Shown here one piece after another: positions 21,001 to 42,000 of a stretch of 64,000 nt of DNA (the stretch's first letter is position 1; each line of letters starts with the position of its first letter). Source of the DNA: an uncultured Elusimicrobia bacterium (lineage in GTDB: Bacteria > Elusimicrobiota > Elusimicrobia > 2-01-FULL-59-12). The stretch is from the NCBI GenBank assembly GCA_963702895.1, contig OY969767.1, positions 1,920,001 through 1,984,000 of the forward strand, in the 5' to 3' direction. A program made the position numbers.

Positions 21001-24000
21001 GACGTTTGCCGTGCACGTTCTCCACCCGAAGCACGCCAAAAATGACGCCAAAGGACCGCAGCGCGATGTAGGCGATGCGATGGGGGTCTTGAAGAATGAG
21101 GTACGTCTTCTTGCCGGACAAGAGCTGGTTGAGGGGAGAGTCGGGGAGGATCGCGATTTCTTCTTCGCCAGGAAGGATGTCCGCGCGGTCCACGAGCTGC
21201 CGCGCCACCAGGGTCTGCCTCGCCTCATCGTGCAGAAAAACCGCCGCGCGGTCGATCCGCATAAACTCGCAGAGATACCGCAGGGCATGCGCCAGGAGCT
21301 CATTTTTGTCCCGCGGGAGCATGGCCCAGTAGCGGCCGCCCCCCAGCGGTTTCTGCAGGGAAAACTTGTGGAATTCTTCGCGAATTTTCAGCAACGCGCG
21401 CTTGTCCTTCATATCAAAAACCGTCCGACGTGCGACGTCCGACGCCAGAAACAATAATCGCATTGATCCAGCACCGTCTCCGGGGCCTGGTACGTGCCTC
21501 TGGACGTCGGACCCGCCACACGGCTGGCGGGCGCCTGTTGTGTGGCGCCTCGGACCTCGGACGGTCGTTCATTCTATTCATAGAGCGACAAAATGTAATT
21601 CGCCTCTTTGGCGGCGCCGGAGAGCTCCTGCGCCAGCGCTGCCTGATCATACCGGTTCTCCCGGACAGCGCTCATGAGGTTCTGCGTCGCGCGCCCCACA
21701 ATCCTTTCAATGGTCCCCAGGGTGGCCGCGCACGGGAGCGTGCGGGCCACGCGGAGCGAGTGCCTGAACACCTCTGCCACTTTGACGGGCGCCGTGCTCA
21801 GGAGCTCTTCCAAAGCGGAGTAGCGGCTGGGCAGCATCCCGATCTGCCGGGAGTGGCGTACCTGCGCGTTCGGGGAGGTCAAGAATTTGATGAGCTTCCA
21901 TGACGCGTGCGGATGTTGAGAAGCCATCACGATCGCGAGGTTCGATCCGCCCAGGTAGGTCACCTGACCCGCGGGGCCGGAAGGGAAGACGGAAATGCCG
22001 TAATTCCGGGCGACGTCCGGCTCATAGTAAGGATACTTGGGGTTGAGAAAGGAGTTGACGGGCCATACCCCTGAAATCTGGAAGGCAAACTGGCCAGAAA
22101 AGAAGTCCCCTGTGTAAAGCCGGTCCCGCCCCAAGAGTGGGATCAAGTGATCGACCATCATTCGGAAATAGAAATCAATGCCTTTCACCGAAGCGGGCTC
22201 CTGAAACTGGGACAAATGTCGATCGGAACTCAGGAAATTCCCCCCAGCGCCCCAAATCCAGGGCGCCAAATCGTGGATCAGGATCCCTTCCTTCTGGCCT
22301 TGTAACGGGAGCGCAAAGAATTTTTTGCCCAGTTTGGAATTGTGCAGAAGTTCACAGGCTTCGCGGAACCCCTTCCACGTGCCCAGATCCTCAGGGCTCA
22401 GGCCCAGTCCGGAGAGAATGTCCTGGCGATAATAGAGAACACGGGTATCCAGAAACCAGGGCATGGAATAGATTTTGGTGCGCGTGGGCTCATAACAGTA
22501 ATTCCAGATGGGCCGGACGATATCGGTACGGTCCATGTCGTCCACGAAGTCGGTCAGGTCGGTGAGTGCGCCCAGGGCCGCCAGAGTCGAATTCCATGTT
22601 CCGCCGATCTGGATGACGTCCGGAGGCTCAAGATAATCGCTGCGCTTGGCAACGGCGATCAGCCGGTCCCAGGCAAAGTGCCAGGGATGGACCGTGAGTT
22701 TGACCTCATAGCCGGGGTTTTCCCGGTGGAAATGGGCCAACTCTTTCTGCATGATGCGCTGGGTGTCAAAGCCCGCGTTGGGCATGACCCACAAATTAAG
22801 CCGTATGGGGTTCGCCATTACATAGTCCCGCTAAAGCTTGTTCTTCTCTGTCATGCCTTGCTCGGCGGGGCTGTCTCCTGTGATCACGTGCTTTTCGGTA
22901 CTGCGCCCTGCCGAGGGAAGCTTGAGCTGAAGCGTCAAGCCTTTGCCCACTTCGCTTTCCACCCAGACTTGACCCCCATGACTTTCGACGGTTTCTTTGA
23001 CCATGGTGAGGCCCAATCCCACACCCGGGACCTGCCCGCAGAAGGCTTTTTCCACCTGGTAGAAACGCTCAAAGACACGCTCGCGGTCCTCGGGCGGGAT
23101 GCCGGGCCCGTTGTCTTTAAGACTGAGGATGACAAACCCGCTTTCCTCGCGGGCGTCAATCCAGAGGTCGCTGGCGCCAAACTTAAAAGCGTTTTCCATG
23201 ACGTTCCGAATGGCGTGCTGCAGGAGGGTCGGGTCGACTTGGACAAAGTGTTGGGCCAAGGCGGGTGAGAGATGCACGTGGGAGTGCTTGCCCGTCAACT
23301 CCTCCAAAGCGAACTTGAGCGCCTCGCTCGCCAGCTCGGCGCAACTGAGGCGCTGGCATAAAAGCTGCTCCGGGTCCAGGCTCGTGAAGGCGATCAGTTG
23401 ATTGACCATGGCTTCCATCTGCCGGCATTGTTTCTGAATCGTTTCCAGGGCGTTGCGCTGGAAATCGTTGAGGGGGGTCGTCGAGTTTTCCGAGAGAAGC
23501 AGCTTGGGATAGGCCCGGATGGTCACAAGCGGCGTTCGCAGCTTGTGGCTGATGAGGGACACAAAGCGGTGCATGGCGGTGTCCGACTTGCGTTCCATGG
23601 TGACATCGCGGAATATGGCCAGATAGCCAAAGTGCTCCTTCTTGGGTGAGGTGATGGGGTTAATGCGGCACTCGAGGATAAACAATCTCGGCTCCTCGCG
23701 GGTCAAATCAAAGGGCTCGCCCTTTTCCTGCTCCAGGCACGCCAGGCGTCCCTGGGGTTCGGTCTGGAAAGAGTCAAAGACTTTTTGGGCGGTGAGGCCC
23801 GCAGGGTCCTTGGGAAGGCCGAGCATGGAACAGGCGGAGGGATTGGCCATAAAAACGAGACCGTTGGTGTCAAAAAGGATGACGCCTTCCTGGGTTTGGG
23901 CAAAGAGGAGCTCCACTTTTTCTCTCTCGATCGCCAGGTCCGCGGAGGTGGCGCGCAGCTCATAGAAAAGCTGCTTGTGCAGCTTGTCCATCACCTCTCC

Positions 24001-39000: not shown

Positions 39001-42000
39001 CCCGGGTGAGACCTTCCAGGACAAAGGTTCTCAGGTCCGCATCGTCTTCAGCGATCAAGAGCCGCATATCGATGGTAAGGGTACCTTCCTTTTAAGGATG
39101 AATCAAGAACAAATCCATGGGTCGAAGAAGGAAAACGTTAGAGGTAGGTTTTCTCCTCTTTCCCTGTAGCAGGAGCCCGCTTGCTCCAGCGAAATTTCCC
39201 CCTCCATGACCCAGGTCATGCAGGGCTACGGAGGGGTATCTCTTTAGTGATTCCGCGACTTTCTAAAGGGGCGCCCGGGGTATTTTGCCGTGCCGCCCGC
39301 CAGTCCCTATAAGGGAACCATCCCGCGGTTCCCCCCGCCAGACATCTGGCGGGTCCCCTCTCCCCTATGGCGGGCTACGCACGACAAAACACCCCGAGCG
39401 CCCCTTCAACGTTCGAGAAACTGTAAAGACGTTGGGAGGTTCAGGGCTGATATGAACATGTCGCAAAAGAATGGCTGAATCATGGCACCTTGATCAGCGA
39501 TGAGCTTTTGCAGGTGGACAAAAGGGCGTTGGGGCAAGGGCAGAATCCGCATAGCGGAGGGGAGGCCGGCTGCACGGTCGGCCGGGGAACCACGGGAGGG
39601 TTCCCCTTATCAAGTCCTGCGGATGACGCCCTTGCCCCAGCGCCCTGCTCGCTCGCGGAACTGCTAAAGAGATACACCGAGGGTCAGCGTTTTGGCTTCG
39701 GACAGGCTGCGCGAACCACCCAGCCGGGGTGTCCGGGAGCGCCGGAGTGAGTCGCCTCCCTGCCCCACGGCAAGGTCCCCAAAGATTTCCTGCTTCTTCC
39801 ATGGGTTCTTCAGCAAATCTTCATCAAATCCTCAGACAATCTTCAGATTCGTTGCCTAAGCTTGTCCTGTCACTCAAACCCACGCCAGTCTCTGGAAGAT
39901 CGCCATACGCTTGCCTGGGGCCTGGCACGACCGAGAGAGGAGACCCTCGTGAACGCGATCATCTCATGCCCCATTTGCTACGGCCAAGGCCACATCGATA
40001 TCACCGATTACATCAACCACGCCGTCCAGGACCGTCGGCCGCTACCTTGTCCGCTCTGTGCAGGACTCGGCTTTATCAAAACCGCCAGAAAGACCGCTCC
40101 CTCATGGAGCTAACGGGCTGGGACAGAGACGACCTGGAGGCGATACGGCTTAAAACAGCGGAAATGCTCTCCTGGAGCGAAATGGAATACAGCCAGGACG
40201 GGTATCTCGTGGGCCATGGCCCCGGCCGCAAGGACTTGAAAGTGGTGCCGTCCTATGCGCGCGACATCAAGGCGGCCTGGGATGTGGTGGAAACGCTCAA
40301 CCGGAAAGGCGCGGACATTCGTATCTCAAACCCTCGCAAGGGCATTCCAGAGTTCGCGGTCGAGATCCGCTTGGCGGATGGACCTACGAGCCGGGCCGTG
40401 CACGAAAAAGCGGCGACGGCGATCTGCCTGGCGTTTTTGGAGTCGACGAAGAAGGCGATCTATGCAGCCAGCGCCCGGAAGTAGCTGCGGCGGTCCGGCG
40501 TGGTGACGACCACCCACAAGCATGCTCACACTTCGTACCCTGTCTCACCATCAACATATCCGGTACAAGTCGGGCGCAGTGCCCGTTTAGAATTTGATTT
40601 CTAAATGGTCGGATATTAAAGATCTGCTATACTTGACGCAGTGATTAAAAGGCTCGCAGACCAACAACTCAGACAAGCCTTGACCCAGTTTCCTGCGGTA
40701 GCGCTGATCGGTCCACGGCAAGTCGGGAAAACCACGCTCGCCAAATCGCTTGGCTCCCGGTATTTTGATCTGGAACAGGAGATCGACCGGCAGCGGCTTG
40801 ATGGCAACTGGACCGAGGTCGCGGGATCCGCGGACTTGGTCATTCTGGATGAAGCACAAAGTGAGCCTCGTCTCTTTCCGCGCCTGCGCGGTGCAATCGA
40901 CGCAGACCGCAAGCGCAAGGGTCGATTTTTACTGCTGGGATCCATCAGCCCCTCTCTGATGCGGAACGTCTCGGAATCCCTGGCGGGGCGTCTGGGTGTA
41001 TGCGAATTGACACCTATTGGAATTCGGGAATTACCGGTGGAAATTGCGCCGGACCACCTCTGGCTTTCGGGAGGCTATCCGGACGGAGGGCTGTTGAACC
41101 CCAAGGACTTCCCTAAATGGCAGGAGGCTTATCTGTTTGCTCTTGCGCACCGCGACCTCCCTCTCTGGGGGCTATCGGCCAAACCGCCCTCCACGGAGCG
41201 ATTGTTTCGCATGCTCTCCCACGCGCACGGTCAGTTGTGGAACGCCTCTCAAATCGGACAAAGCCTTGGTTTGACCTATCACACGGCCCAGTCGTATGCG
41301 GATTACCTTGTTCACAGCTTTCTCATCCGCTTTCTCCCGCCGTTTCATGGGAATCCCCGGAAGCGCCTGCTGAAAAGTCCCAAACTGTACTGGCGGGATT
41401 CCGGCCTTCTTCACGCGCTCTGGGGCGTCAGAAATCTGGAAGACCTTCAGTCTCGGCCCCAAATGGGAGCCAGCTGGGAGGGCTGGGTGATCGAGCAGAT
41501 CCTTATCCACCTGCGGCAGAATGGAATTCATCACGACGCGGCCTTTTTGAGAACAAAAGACGGTGTTGAAGCGGATCTGGTGCTTGACATCGGCCGCCAA
41601 CGCTGGGCGATTGAAATTAAATTTTCCTCGGAGCCGTCGTCGGACGCGTTGAGAACGCTTGAACGCGCGGCCACGATCGCAGGCGCAACGCGACAGGCCA
41701 TCATCTGCCGTAGCCCAGTGGCGACACAGGCCGGTCATCTGCTGATCAGTCCGCTTAAGGATTTTCTTCCTCTCCTTCATTAGCCCGGAATCTTCGTGCG
41801 CCAGGACAAACTGCACTGAACCCAGTGGATGAAAGATCCACGGCCCAAGGCCTAGCCAGCCAGGGCATAGCTCGTCTTGCATCGACGGCCGTGAGGTCGG
41901 AGGCGAAGCGTAGACAAGCGACAACGTAGGCCGCAAGGTGATAAACCGATGGAGCCCCGAAAAGAACGGTAATGTTGTGGAAGCCGAGGCTGTGAAGATC

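Follow-up and report, generated by a model that had tools for sequence, protein, structure and literature searches.

An operon on the minus strand of a 64,000-nucleotide stretch of DNA from an uncultured Elusimicrobia bacterium (the window) probably encodes interchangeable synthase-receptor cassettes for lipid signals, and is a candidate locus for cell-cell signalling. The first-pass annotation had read the region as a synthase-receptor system for an acyl-derived signal, and this remains the best reading, better supported now because enzyme and sensor co-occur reciprocally and because the enzyme and the seven-transmembrane (7TM) sensing domain are swapped together. The unit had been drawn too widely, from the FadL-type channel, FabF and acyl carrier protein (ACP) through the thioesterase (TE) to the whole sensor array. 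Its conserved core is an enediyne-type TE and one clade of HisKA_7TM sensors, represented here by S1 and S2, to which FabF, ACP and FadL are accessories; this core was found to be far more widespread than first described. G-numbers below denote compared genomes and L-numbers compared loci.

The gene order FadL-type channel, FabF, ACP, 4HBT_2 thioesterase and sensors was borne out, all on the minus strand, with intergenic gaps from FadL to S6 of 50, 1, -4, 4, -4 and 2 bp, a frameshift, and 0, 0 and 2 bp. The operon is headed by a gene missing from the earlier list, which encodes a 78-residue HTH_17 DNA-binding protein (37861..38097; PF12728, 37.6 bits) with orthologs of 57-74% identity in L323, L324, L326, L084 and L088. 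Upstream of it, at 38210..38234 of the same strand, lies a conserved element composed of TTGACA, 17 bp and a -10-like hexamer, which also holds the inverted repeat ACAG-N12-CTGT. This pattern occurs once in the genome and in 4 of 407 loci (L084, L088, L323 and L324), always upstream of the orthologous HTH gene, and would presumably act as a promoter. The OmpR-type regulator at 38384-39067, formerly included in the range, was rejected as part of the module; it was not seen at the corresponding position in those four relatives whose loci extend upstream (L323, L324, L084 and L349). The start of the FadL-type gene, formerly placed at 37946, is most likely at 37709, where the protein begins with a signal-peptide-like sequence. 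At the other end, a soluble REC-PAS-HisKA-HATPase hybrid kinase (22831..24333) starts 477 bp after S6, followed on the same strand by two backbone genes outside the range first described, for an SBP_bac_1-like protein with no obvious signal peptide (21574-22818) and a GAF-GAF-GGDEF cyclase (19916-21463). GC3 is 0.57-0.63 in the genes of the cassette and rises to 0.73-0.75 at the backbone end. Close to the operon region lie repeats and a group II intron.

The FadL/OMPP1-type outer-membrane channel (36339..37709) matches PF03349 (Toluene_X) with 234.8 bits, and belongs to the wider OMPP1/FadL/TodX family while scoring under the NF007988 equivalog cut-off (95.4 vs 585 bits). It is kept in G064 and G410 despite a different or an empty slot, is missing from this place in G258 (where another gene stands instead) and G336, and likely lets a hydrophobic molecule in or out. 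The slot cassette proper begins with a FabF-like ketosynthase (35047..36288) with an intact Cys-His-His triad, which falls below the equivalog cut-off of TIGR03150 (487 vs 493.75 bits), a value exceeded by its homologs in L005 and L001. It is 43.5% identical to the housekeeping FabF of a plsX-fabH-fabD-fabG-acpP-fabF operon, and the presence of this complete operon elsewhere in the genome led us to reject a second housekeeping fatty-acid synthase. The slot ACP (34779..35045; PF00550, 51 bits) carries DSF at the attachment serine, as do most ACPs of FabF-ACP-TE loci, where the housekeeping ACP has DSL. The hot-dog TE (34294..34782) finds its best PDB matches in 4i4j (E 3e-19), 2w3x and 2xem, and is of the enediyne type by its closest solved homologs and by the conserved arginine of its WQGxxRE motif, which we take to be catalytic; 202 of the 204 domains in the alignment retain this arginine (R57). 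The TE is a putative signal-releasing enzyme. Its closest solved relatives are the enediyne thioesterases SgcE10, CalE7 and DynE7, which share motif and arginine and, according to the available parts of two reports, free chains from ACP (PMC3107222, PMC9992847). However, those enzymes pair with an iterative polyketide synthase (PKS), whereas the window TE pairs with a membrane sensor: no iterative type I PKS stands beside it in the operon, and only stand-alone ketosynthases were seen in TE loci. A polyene or enediyne cluster was rejected, as PKS, reductase and dehydratase are all missing. Related loci contain PilZ-TE, ACP-PilZ-TE, PilZ-FabF and REC-FabF fusions, which at the level of domain architecture tie slot-type enzymes to signalling.

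Behind the cassette stand six HisKA_7TM domains, one more than the five first counted, and these are all that the genome holds. Against the curated PF16927 cut-off of 28.6 bits, all six pass in one search (31.7-63.2 bits) and five in another, where S6 reaches 26.7. S1 (33072..34289) combines a 7TM domain, a 2TM segment and the first half of a GAF domain, with no kinase; in a profile built from full-length sensors, 710 positions long, it covers positions 2-381. S2 (31402..33075) spans positions 395-706 plus 6-224 of the same profile, comprising the second half of the GAF domain, a histidine kinase and a second 7TM domain. By this profile coverage, the two genes are one sensor split through its GAF domain; a sequencing artefact was rejected, since the same split occurs in 9 other loci. 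A profile of the TE-associated clade places S1 (262 bits) and S2 (160 bits) within it and, by scores of only 39-64 bits, S3-S6 in other receptor clades, all four with 7TM-2TM-kinase architecture. S3 (29766..31399) is split, as previously noted, by a frameshift into ORFs 30722-31399 and 29766-30887, one T being short in a T run near 30835-30840, which may be either a real lesion or a long-read error. S4 (28140..29765) belongs to a non-TE clade, and its kinase half is 91% DNA-identical to those of S3 and S5. The 7TM domain of S5 (26385..28139) groups with that of S1 in G064 (support 100/99) and, in a second tree that left out the out-of-frame row L350_b, with three more reductase-adjacent sensors (0.976). 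Elsewhere this clade follows a PilZ-HMG-CoA-reductase-like gene, and none was found in this genome, which suggests S5 as a candidate eavesdropping receptor. S6 (24811..26382), from another clade, is 54% identical to its L088 ortholog; in G366 the S6-type kinase bears a TE-clade 7TM domain instead. The hybrid kinase stands directly behind S2 in seven relatives' loci (L323-L327, L082 and L084) and is likely the phosphate acceptor for the array.

Structure models of S4 and S1 (pLDDT 92.8 and 92.3) place seven membrane helices ahead of the signalling domain, as expected for PF16927. The best structural match of each is a GPCR (Z 16.6, rmsd 4.5, 210 aligned for S4; Z 16.9, rmsd 3.8, 221 aligned for S1), so that the domain models as a GPCR-like fold, a resemblance that by itself demonstrates no function. 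No solved structure resembled the 7TM domain by sequence at E 1, and no bacterial sensor was among the top 50 fold matches, an absence that rules nothing out. About 25 of the 36 positions conserved at 85% or more fall in the predicted outer half or outer hairpin, under an inferred N-out topology.

The pairing of TE and sensor was followed across genomes with a TE alignment, which was needed to reach the wider set, as a single-protein scan returned 2 loci only. Where at least 1.5 kb flanked the TE on both sides, it lay beside a TE-clade 7TM sensor in all 68 genome loci and all 26 metagenome loci (74/80 and 67/80 regardless of flanks), while none of seven control YbgC-like TEs was near a 7TM sensor. 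Among the 68, ACP was near in 5, FabF in 4 and FadL in 1. From the sensor side, 66 of 80 TE-clade sensors had a TE, a count that is partly circular, and 14 had none within the locus; Burkholderiaceae PF16927 kinases, evenly picked independent of TE, had one beside them in 19 of 20 cases, against 0 of 30 PF16927-GGDEF loci with 1.5-kb flanks. The pair occurs in three orientations across several phyla, and the TE-clade 7TM domain is found on kinases, on HD-GYP outputs (L014) or alone, hence the link of the TE is to the sensing domain. Exceptions are G366, which has a TE-clade sensor while its genome, 89% complete, gave no strong match to the TE, and L176, with a strong TE and no sensor near. TE and 7TM distances correlate over 79 pairs (Mantel r 0.79), a value confounded by shared ancestry, and the proteobacterial loci come for the most part from closely related bacteria, Duganella and its relatives.

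Within the family, the backbone reads HTH-(FadL)-[slot]-split sensor-hybrid kinase-SBP-cyclase, with the SBP gene in 9 of 11 family genomes and SBP and cyclase genes in the same order in L323, L324, L325, L326, L328, L329, L084 and L082. Over eight genomes, the slot is either empty or filled by one of six different sets of acyl-processing enzymes: FabF-ACP-TE (G000), an AONS/CqsA-like aminotransferase (G258 and G407), a LuxD-type hydrolase-methyltransferase (G408), an HMG-CoA-reductase-like enzyme (G064), an acyl-ACP-reductase-like enzyme (G409), a ketosynthase with an ICMT-like protein (G336), and neither enzyme nor intact 7TM domain (G410). G000, G407 and G408 belong to one genus. Absence from the order mates, as first stated, holds only for the FabF-ACP-TE cassette (none of 10 family mates gave a strong TE match) and fails for the S2 kinase half, present in 7 of the 11 order mates (8 of 12 order genomes). 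S1 residues 1-214 share 51-61% identity with three TE loci and 19-26% with four other-enzyme loci, while residues 215-405 keep 51-68% in all seven orthologs compared; the 7TM parts of the two aminotransferase loci are 65% identical to each other. Judged from these identities, the 7TM domain changes with the slot enzyme and the remainder of S1 does not; the break point falls within S1, where the 7TM domain ends. A constant family backbone in which enzyme and matching 7TM domain are swapped as a pair in one slot is what is new here. In 401 phylum genomes, reductase-like genes were followed by a 7TM sensor in 5 of 5 cases, and a single-protein scan with the reductase retrieved only the query itself. 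In the trees, reductase-adjacent sensors fall in two clades, and the two sensors that adjoin an acyl-ACP reductase do not cluster together, so enzyme class and receptor clade do not match one to one.

In the proposed mechanism, the dedicated FabF would extend an acyl chain on the dedicated ACP, with malonyl units supplied by the housekeeping synthase, and the TE would free the chain as an acid. Because the cassette has no reductase, a 3-oxo acid or its methyl ketone is the first guess for the product, followed by a 3-hydroxy or plain acid. The molecule would cross the outer membrane with the help of the FadL-type channel and bind the outer half of the S1 7TM bundle; S1 would signal through S2, the two together rebuilding one GAF domain, and phosphate would pass to the hybrid kinase at its REC domain, then to the cyclase. 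The resulting c-di-GMP could feed back on the PilZ-bearing synthases seen in relatives. In the relatives, different enzymes would yield different acyl-derived molecules, each paired with a 7TM domain to match, and S3-S6 would be extra receptors for molecules that this cell does not make.

An alternative, which we consider unlikely, is that the enzyme is a cytoplasmic partner of the sensor or a gauge of the acyl pool, binding the sensor or reporting intracellular acyl-thioesters. Four incomplete genomes of 0.5-0.6 Mb keep the TE and a TE-clade kinase, with ACP and ketosynthase detected in none of the four, and the substrate therefore cannot always be a home-made acyl-ACP, which counts against the proposed mechanism as well. 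PqsE calls for caution: this thioesterase was initially put forward as the synthase of an autoinducer and reportedly later shown to act by binding its receptor. The available text on CqsA and CqsS describes tight binding in a kinase-inhibited complex (PMC13729885), a precedent for contact between enzyme and kinase. However, the part that changes together with the enzyme is the membrane domain, whose predicted outer side is conserved, and not the cytoplasmic part; moreover, six unrelated enzyme folds, all acting on acyl thioesters or related lipids, share one slot, the TE arginine is almost invariant, and the FadL channel is kept beside the enzymes.

It is also improbable that the sensors detect outside lipids of host, prey or environmental origin, imported by FadL and converted or removed by the enzyme. 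FadL-type channels do import fatty acids, some sensors stand without an enzyme (the 14 of 80 above, and Shk on two Ralstonia plasmids without an adjacent TE), and tiny host-dependent genomes carry the pair. Yet a dedicated FabF and ACP are biosynthetic, the window operon has no acyl-CoA ligase or beta-oxidation gene by domain search, the aminotransferase and methyltransferase variants resemble known classes of signal synthase, and species of one genus differ in cassette, as private signals do. That the slot is simply an insertion hotspot, with enzyme and receptor neighbours by descent only, is very improbable, even if unrelated mobile-looking genes enter the region (the gene replacing FadL in G258, and the nearby repeats and intron). 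The survival of the pair in three orientations and several phyla, the break point at the 7TM end within S1 and the joint loss of enzyme and 7TM domain in G410 all speak against it, and the counts of 19/20 beside kinases vs 0/30 for PF16927-GGDEF come close to refuting it.

Among known systems, the agr and ComQXPA pherotype cassettes have a variable block that takes in the genes for signal production together with the kinase's sensing half, joined to a constant kinase half, and swap peptide alleles of one chemistry. The window locus shares this arrangement, but its slot swaps unrelated enzyme classes and its receptor is split over two genes. With the alpha-hydroxyketone quorum-sensing systems CqsA/CqsS, LqsA/LqsS and JqsA/JqsS it shares a synthase gene using acyl-thioesters next to a membrane kinase, and in two family mates the slot is occupied by an enzyme of the AONS family. 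The CqsS transmembrane domain, as far as the accessible text describes it, binds the lipid signal and has six helices plus a transverse helix (PMC13729885), whereas the window sensor is modelled with seven helices in a GPCR-like fold and its enzyme is a thioesterase. A CqsA/CqsS system was rejected for the window, which has no six-helix sensor with an AONS-type synthase; with the alpha-hydroxyketone synthase model, whose cut-off is 428 bits, the slot aminotransferases reach 234-249. In Rpf/DSF and BDSF signalling, thioesterase activity frees a fatty acid from acyl-ACP, a membrane kinase senses it and the wiring leads to c-di-GMP, according to the portions available (PMC12838280, PMC13220807). 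A free acid derived from acyl-ACP, a membrane kinase and a c-di-GMP link, as in RpfF, RpfC and RpfG/RpfR, are likewise proposed for the window, but RpfF has a crotonase fold and RpfC, in the portion available, five helices (PMC12838280), as opposed to a hot-dog TE and a seven-helix domain; the domain search found no crotonase in the operon, and an Rpf/DSF system was rejected. Ralstonia PhcB/PhcS, in the accessible part of one report, use a fatty-acid-derived signal with synthase and receptor co-evolving by signal type (PMC7694676). The likeness to PhcB/PhcS/PhcR lies in an operon with a kinase and a REC-kinase hybrid and in the hydrolase-methyltransferase of the G408 slot, for which the search led to no PhcB-named protein; the window itself has no methyltransferase. 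The LuxN model matched none of 25 7TM members, and LuxN was not retrieved in 400 genomes in a search without a responding control; the kinase halves of proteobacterial members do match this model.

A wider reading, possible though held tentatively, is that HisKA_7TM domains are GPCR-fold receptors for many acyl-derived signals (acids or ketones, aldehydes, alcohols, aminoketones and methyl esters), that the slot swaps chemistries together with the 7TM domain, that the GAF split lets receptor halves plug in trans into a constant kinase half, and that tandem copies and orphans such as Shk listen. In it, the tandem copies have homogenised kinases and hear the signals of other species, and orphans of the Shk type hear the TE-type molecule. 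The paired swapping of enzyme and sensor in the slot has the look of a hitherto undescribed set of private chemical signals, with extra receptors for hearing neighbours. No HisKA_7TM ligand was found in print in the accessible portions of the sources, nor any link of TE to HisKA_7TM in the literature covered, a coverage that ends short of subscription journals and bioRxiv supplements. If true, the proposal would give ligands to this sensor family, supply matched pairs of enzyme and receptor for testing in all combinations, point to a bacterial receptor of modelled GPCR fold with a predicted lipid ligand, and make the within-genus swapping of unrelated chemistries a new route to signal diversity. 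Cultured Duganella, Massilia, Collimonas and Variovorax carry a minimal two-gene form, which already opens the question to experiment.

For Shk (RSp0220), an orphan kinase of Ralstonia pseudosolanacearum GMI1000, the proposal would also indicate a candidate class of ligand. The available text describes Shk as having seven helices, DHp and HATPase domains and suggests plant-derived signals (PMC12993560), a suggestion that counts against the main reading. Shk is a homolog of the window sensors with the same architecture; the deletion primer of that paper maps 227 bp from the gene end of the homolog in GMI1000. The OE1-1 copy is 99.6% identical to the latter and, across the 7TM domain, shares about 31% identity with S1 and S2. 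Unlike in the window, no TE adjoins it in GMI1000 or OE1-1, but the R. wenshanensis ortholog (73%) has a TE beside it.

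The operon lies on the minus strand and opens with an HTH_17 gene (37861-38097, minus strand) that is absent from the first-pass annotation. Downstream follow a channel of the FadL type, a FabF-like ketosynthase in which the Cys-His-His triad is present, an ACP, a hot-dog thioesterase (TE, 34294-34782), six HisKA_7TM (PF16927) sensor genes (S1-S6, of which S3 is frameshifted), a soluble REC-PAS-kinase, an SBP-like gene and a GAF-GAF-GGDEF cyclase (19916-21463). The gene order, strand and coordinates of that annotation were borne out, and its five HisKA_7TM domains have to be corrected to six, which are all that the genome contains. 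The last 7TM gene is separated from the REC-PAS-kinase by 477 bp, and a housekeeping fab operon exists separately elsewhere in the genome. Upstream of the HTH gene, a 25-base promoter-like element was found, which occurs once in the genome; of 407 loci, four carry it, and all of these are orthologous. Between an OmpR-type gene and this promoter there is a 29-bp inverted repeat with a 71-nt loop (38252-38380). The REC-PAS-kinase (hybrid kinase, 22831-24333) carries a lysine and no acidic residue after its phospho-histidine, as do all relatives compared, and it may act as an acceptor or phosphatase instead of an autokinase. The SBP_bac_1-like protein (21574-22818), 67-90% identical across eight family mates, has no obvious signal peptide and keeps a constant place between hybrid kinase and cyclase; it is possibly a cytoplasmic ligand-binding adaptor.

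The closest relatives of TE are the enediyne thioesterases SgcE10, CalE7 and DynE7. An alignment search for TE homologues returned 249 genome and 235 metagenome matches, and among the best 80 of each a 7TM sensor was located within 2.5 kb of TE in 74 and 67 loci, respectively. Where at least 1.5 kb was available on both sides, the sensor was present in 68/68 genome and 26/26 metagenome loci, counts that include close kin and thus entries that are not independent. Across those 68 genome loci, ACP, FabF and FadL were found near TE in 5, 4 and 1, respectively. The earlier observation is confirmed, and its synthase-receptor interpretation is partly supported, for the thioesterase and one clade of sensor and not for these accessories, and is here extended. 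Such loci occur in Omnitrophota, Nitrospirota, Planctomycetia, Endomicrobia and many Proteobacteria, the last having TE and kinase alone. Within the phylum (401 genomes), 14 TE matches were obtained, with a sensor near 5 of the 6 strong ones outside the window's genome and near 0 of the 7 weak, YbgC-like ones.

By searching in reverse from the sensor, TE was found beside 66 of the best 80 of 199 matches and near none of the other 14, some of which are at contig edges. As the query had been drawn from TE neighbours and was biased toward TE, the search was repeated without that bias by using PF16927 in Burkholderiaceae, where it matched 95 of 297 genomes. TE adjoined 19 of 20 low-scoring matches, all kinases, sampled in roughly even steps through about 80; in the comparison set of 30 top-scoring, GGDEF-bearing loci, with 1.5-kb flanks, it was beside none. 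In these counts, too, kin are not independent entries.

The new part of the finding is a slot, the operon place between HTH/(FadL) and S1, and its exchange. The kinase half of S2 was found in 8 of the 12 order genomes, and their loci conserve HTH, (FadL), slot, S1, S2, hybrid kinase, SBP and cyclase up to the contig limits. In the window's genome and in metagenome loci L082-L085, FabF-ACP-TE occupies the slot, and L088 has only TE there. Genomes G258 and G407 carry an aminotransferase of the BioF/CqsA family in this place, G408 a fusion of a LuxD-type acyl transferase with a methyltransferase, G064 a protein resembling HMG-CoA reductase, G409 one resembling acyl-ACP reductase (TIGR04058 85 bits, PigE model 146, both under cut-off) and G336 a ketosynthase with an ICMT-like protein. 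In G410 the slot is empty, and its S1 is without the 7TM too. The window's genome, G407 and G408 belong to one genus. After residue 215, S1 retains 51-68% identity to the window's S1 across seven orthologs, while its 7TM is 51-61% identical with TE in the slot and 19-26% with another enzyme. The 7TM domains of both aminotransferase loci are 65% identical to each other, and for those of G408 and G336 the window's S1 is not one of the five nearest domains (28% at most). Since 7TM identity tracks the slot enzyme and the rest of S1 is constant, the break point falls within the receptor gene. At L140, a reductase, TE and a second reductase stand in series, each followed by its own 7TM gene, and a 7TM sensor follows all five reductase-like genes of the 401 phylum genomes. 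Against a simple enzyme-receptor code, reductase-adjacent sensors fall into two clades, and both acyl-ACP-reductase-adjacent sensors fail to group. A further locus, L313:998-10583 (G249), runs FadL, ACP, FabZ-like, FabF, oxidoreductase and male-sterility-type reductase into a 7TM-GAF kinase, and is a candidate larger synthase cassette.

Taken together, the operon is probably a synthase-receptor cassette for an acyl-derived signal. Next to 7TM domains that change with the slot enzyme, a hitchhiking origin, in which enzyme and receptor are merely neighbours, appears very improbable. Two other explanations are each considered unlikely: that TE or the slot enzyme serves as a partner protein of the sensor, and that the locus senses and processes outside lipids. 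Four genomes of 0.5-0.6 Mb, two Saccharibacteria and one Paceibacterota among them, have TE with a kinase of the TE clade (the 7TM sensor clade found beside TE, including S1 and S2), and neither ACP nor ketosynthase was found when these four were searched; a fifth small genome with the pair (1.3 Mb) does have an ACP. In these four, TE would therefore act on acyl-CoA or on a substrate supplied by the host, or would have a different role.

S1 and S2 appear as a split receptor. Aligned to a profile built from 16 full-length sensors, S1 accounts for positions 2-381 and S2 for 395-706, the cut being within the GAF domain, and S2 carries a second 7TM ahead of its kinase-half region. The identical split is seen in L082, L084, L088, G064, G258, G407, G408, G409 and G410, with the second gene reduced to one helix in L084, G064 and G258. 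In G336, both halves are in a single 755-residue protein whose GAF spans the joint (42% identity to S1 36-404, 63% to S2 232-544). We infer that the S1 and S2 halves assemble.

Over about 700 bp, the kinase regions of S3, S4 and S5 are 91-95% identical at the DNA level, and their 7TM domains are 22-37% alike; the array thus diversifies in its sensing part and is homogenised in its output part. In L088 and G366, S4-type and S5-type domains are fused into one protein. S5 clades with the slot receptor of G064 (support 100/99) and with three further reductase-adjacent sensors (0.976), and a search of the window's genome gave no reductase match. As a mirror case, G366 (89% complete) has an S6-type kinase bearing a TE-clade 7TM and no strong TE match. 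We read S5 and this G366 sensor as putative listeners.

The models of S4 and S1 each show seven helices, the fourth and fifth being separated by a beta-hairpin, and their best structural matches are GPCRs (Z 16.6 and 16.9, respectively). The 7TM N-terminus would be outside, because the first loop is basic and the kinase cytoplasmic. Given this topology, of the 36 positions that are strongly conserved in the TE clade about 25, including W46, Q47, W50, Y129, P130, H136, D187 and N191, are in the outer half or hairpin, the same region where GPCRs bind ligands; S3-S6 are without this residue set. Many TEs carry a fused PilZ domain, as do some ketosynthases and reductases (PilZ scores in G064 and G258 below cut-off), REC is fused to FabF in L005, and some sensors terminate in HD-GYP, so the 7TM circuit appears to be tied to c-di-GMP.

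The layout resembles that of the agr and ComQXPA pherotype cassettes, although their defining features are not found here where testable. Nor, where testable, are those of CqsA/CqsS, Rpf/DSF and PhcB/PhcS, which the cassette, in its proposed function, would resemble in operation. Bernard and others reported that homologs of CqsA, LuxI and PpyS lie next to kinases in genomes of the CPR, and they proposed eavesdropping; their text contains neither 'thioesterase' nor 'Elusimicrobia' (PMC7567580). A TE-clade member already studied is Shk of GMI1000, matched via primer position, and the available part of that study gives no ligand (PMC12993560). MKS2 is a precedent for 3-oxo acid release by a hot-dog enzyme (PMC6843456, PMC6678348), and PqsE serves as a comparison system (PMC6176596), along with other literature (PMC5847659, PMC7694676, PMC6580516, PMC13220807, PMC12838280, PMC9992847, PMC3107222, PMC13729885). 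No report of the TE-sensor pair or the slot was found in the literature within reach, which excluded subscription papers and bioRxiv supplements.

Variants of the pair were also observed. Tiny genomes carry a double-domain TE (L228:5078-5998, L209:5065-5970, L275:1-720), the first domain in L228 being without the conserved arginine. In Paceibacterota (L204:5992-11150, L208, L220), up to five kinase-less 7TM genes occur, with the TE-clade domain first and TE absent nearby. Of the 89 genomes in one family (f16, L289-L309), 23 encode a relative of the TE-clade sensor that scores lower, and the phylum search gave no strong TE match in them.

A group II intron and repeats were noted in and around the operon. 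A group II intron occupies 41832-43677, with Rfam D1-D4 and domain V matches on either side of its reverse transcriptase/maturase (42216-43604, TIGR04416 355 bits, above cut-off). Between S6 and the hybrid kinase, a REP- or MITE-like repeat of about 155 bp (24577-24734) has dozens of genome copies at 76-95% identity. At 39123-39797 there are two element ends (about 110 and 95 bp), and nested inverted repeats are present; this element is found at five or more other places with a span of about 450-550 bp, and the copy here carries a 168-bp insert seen once elsewhere.
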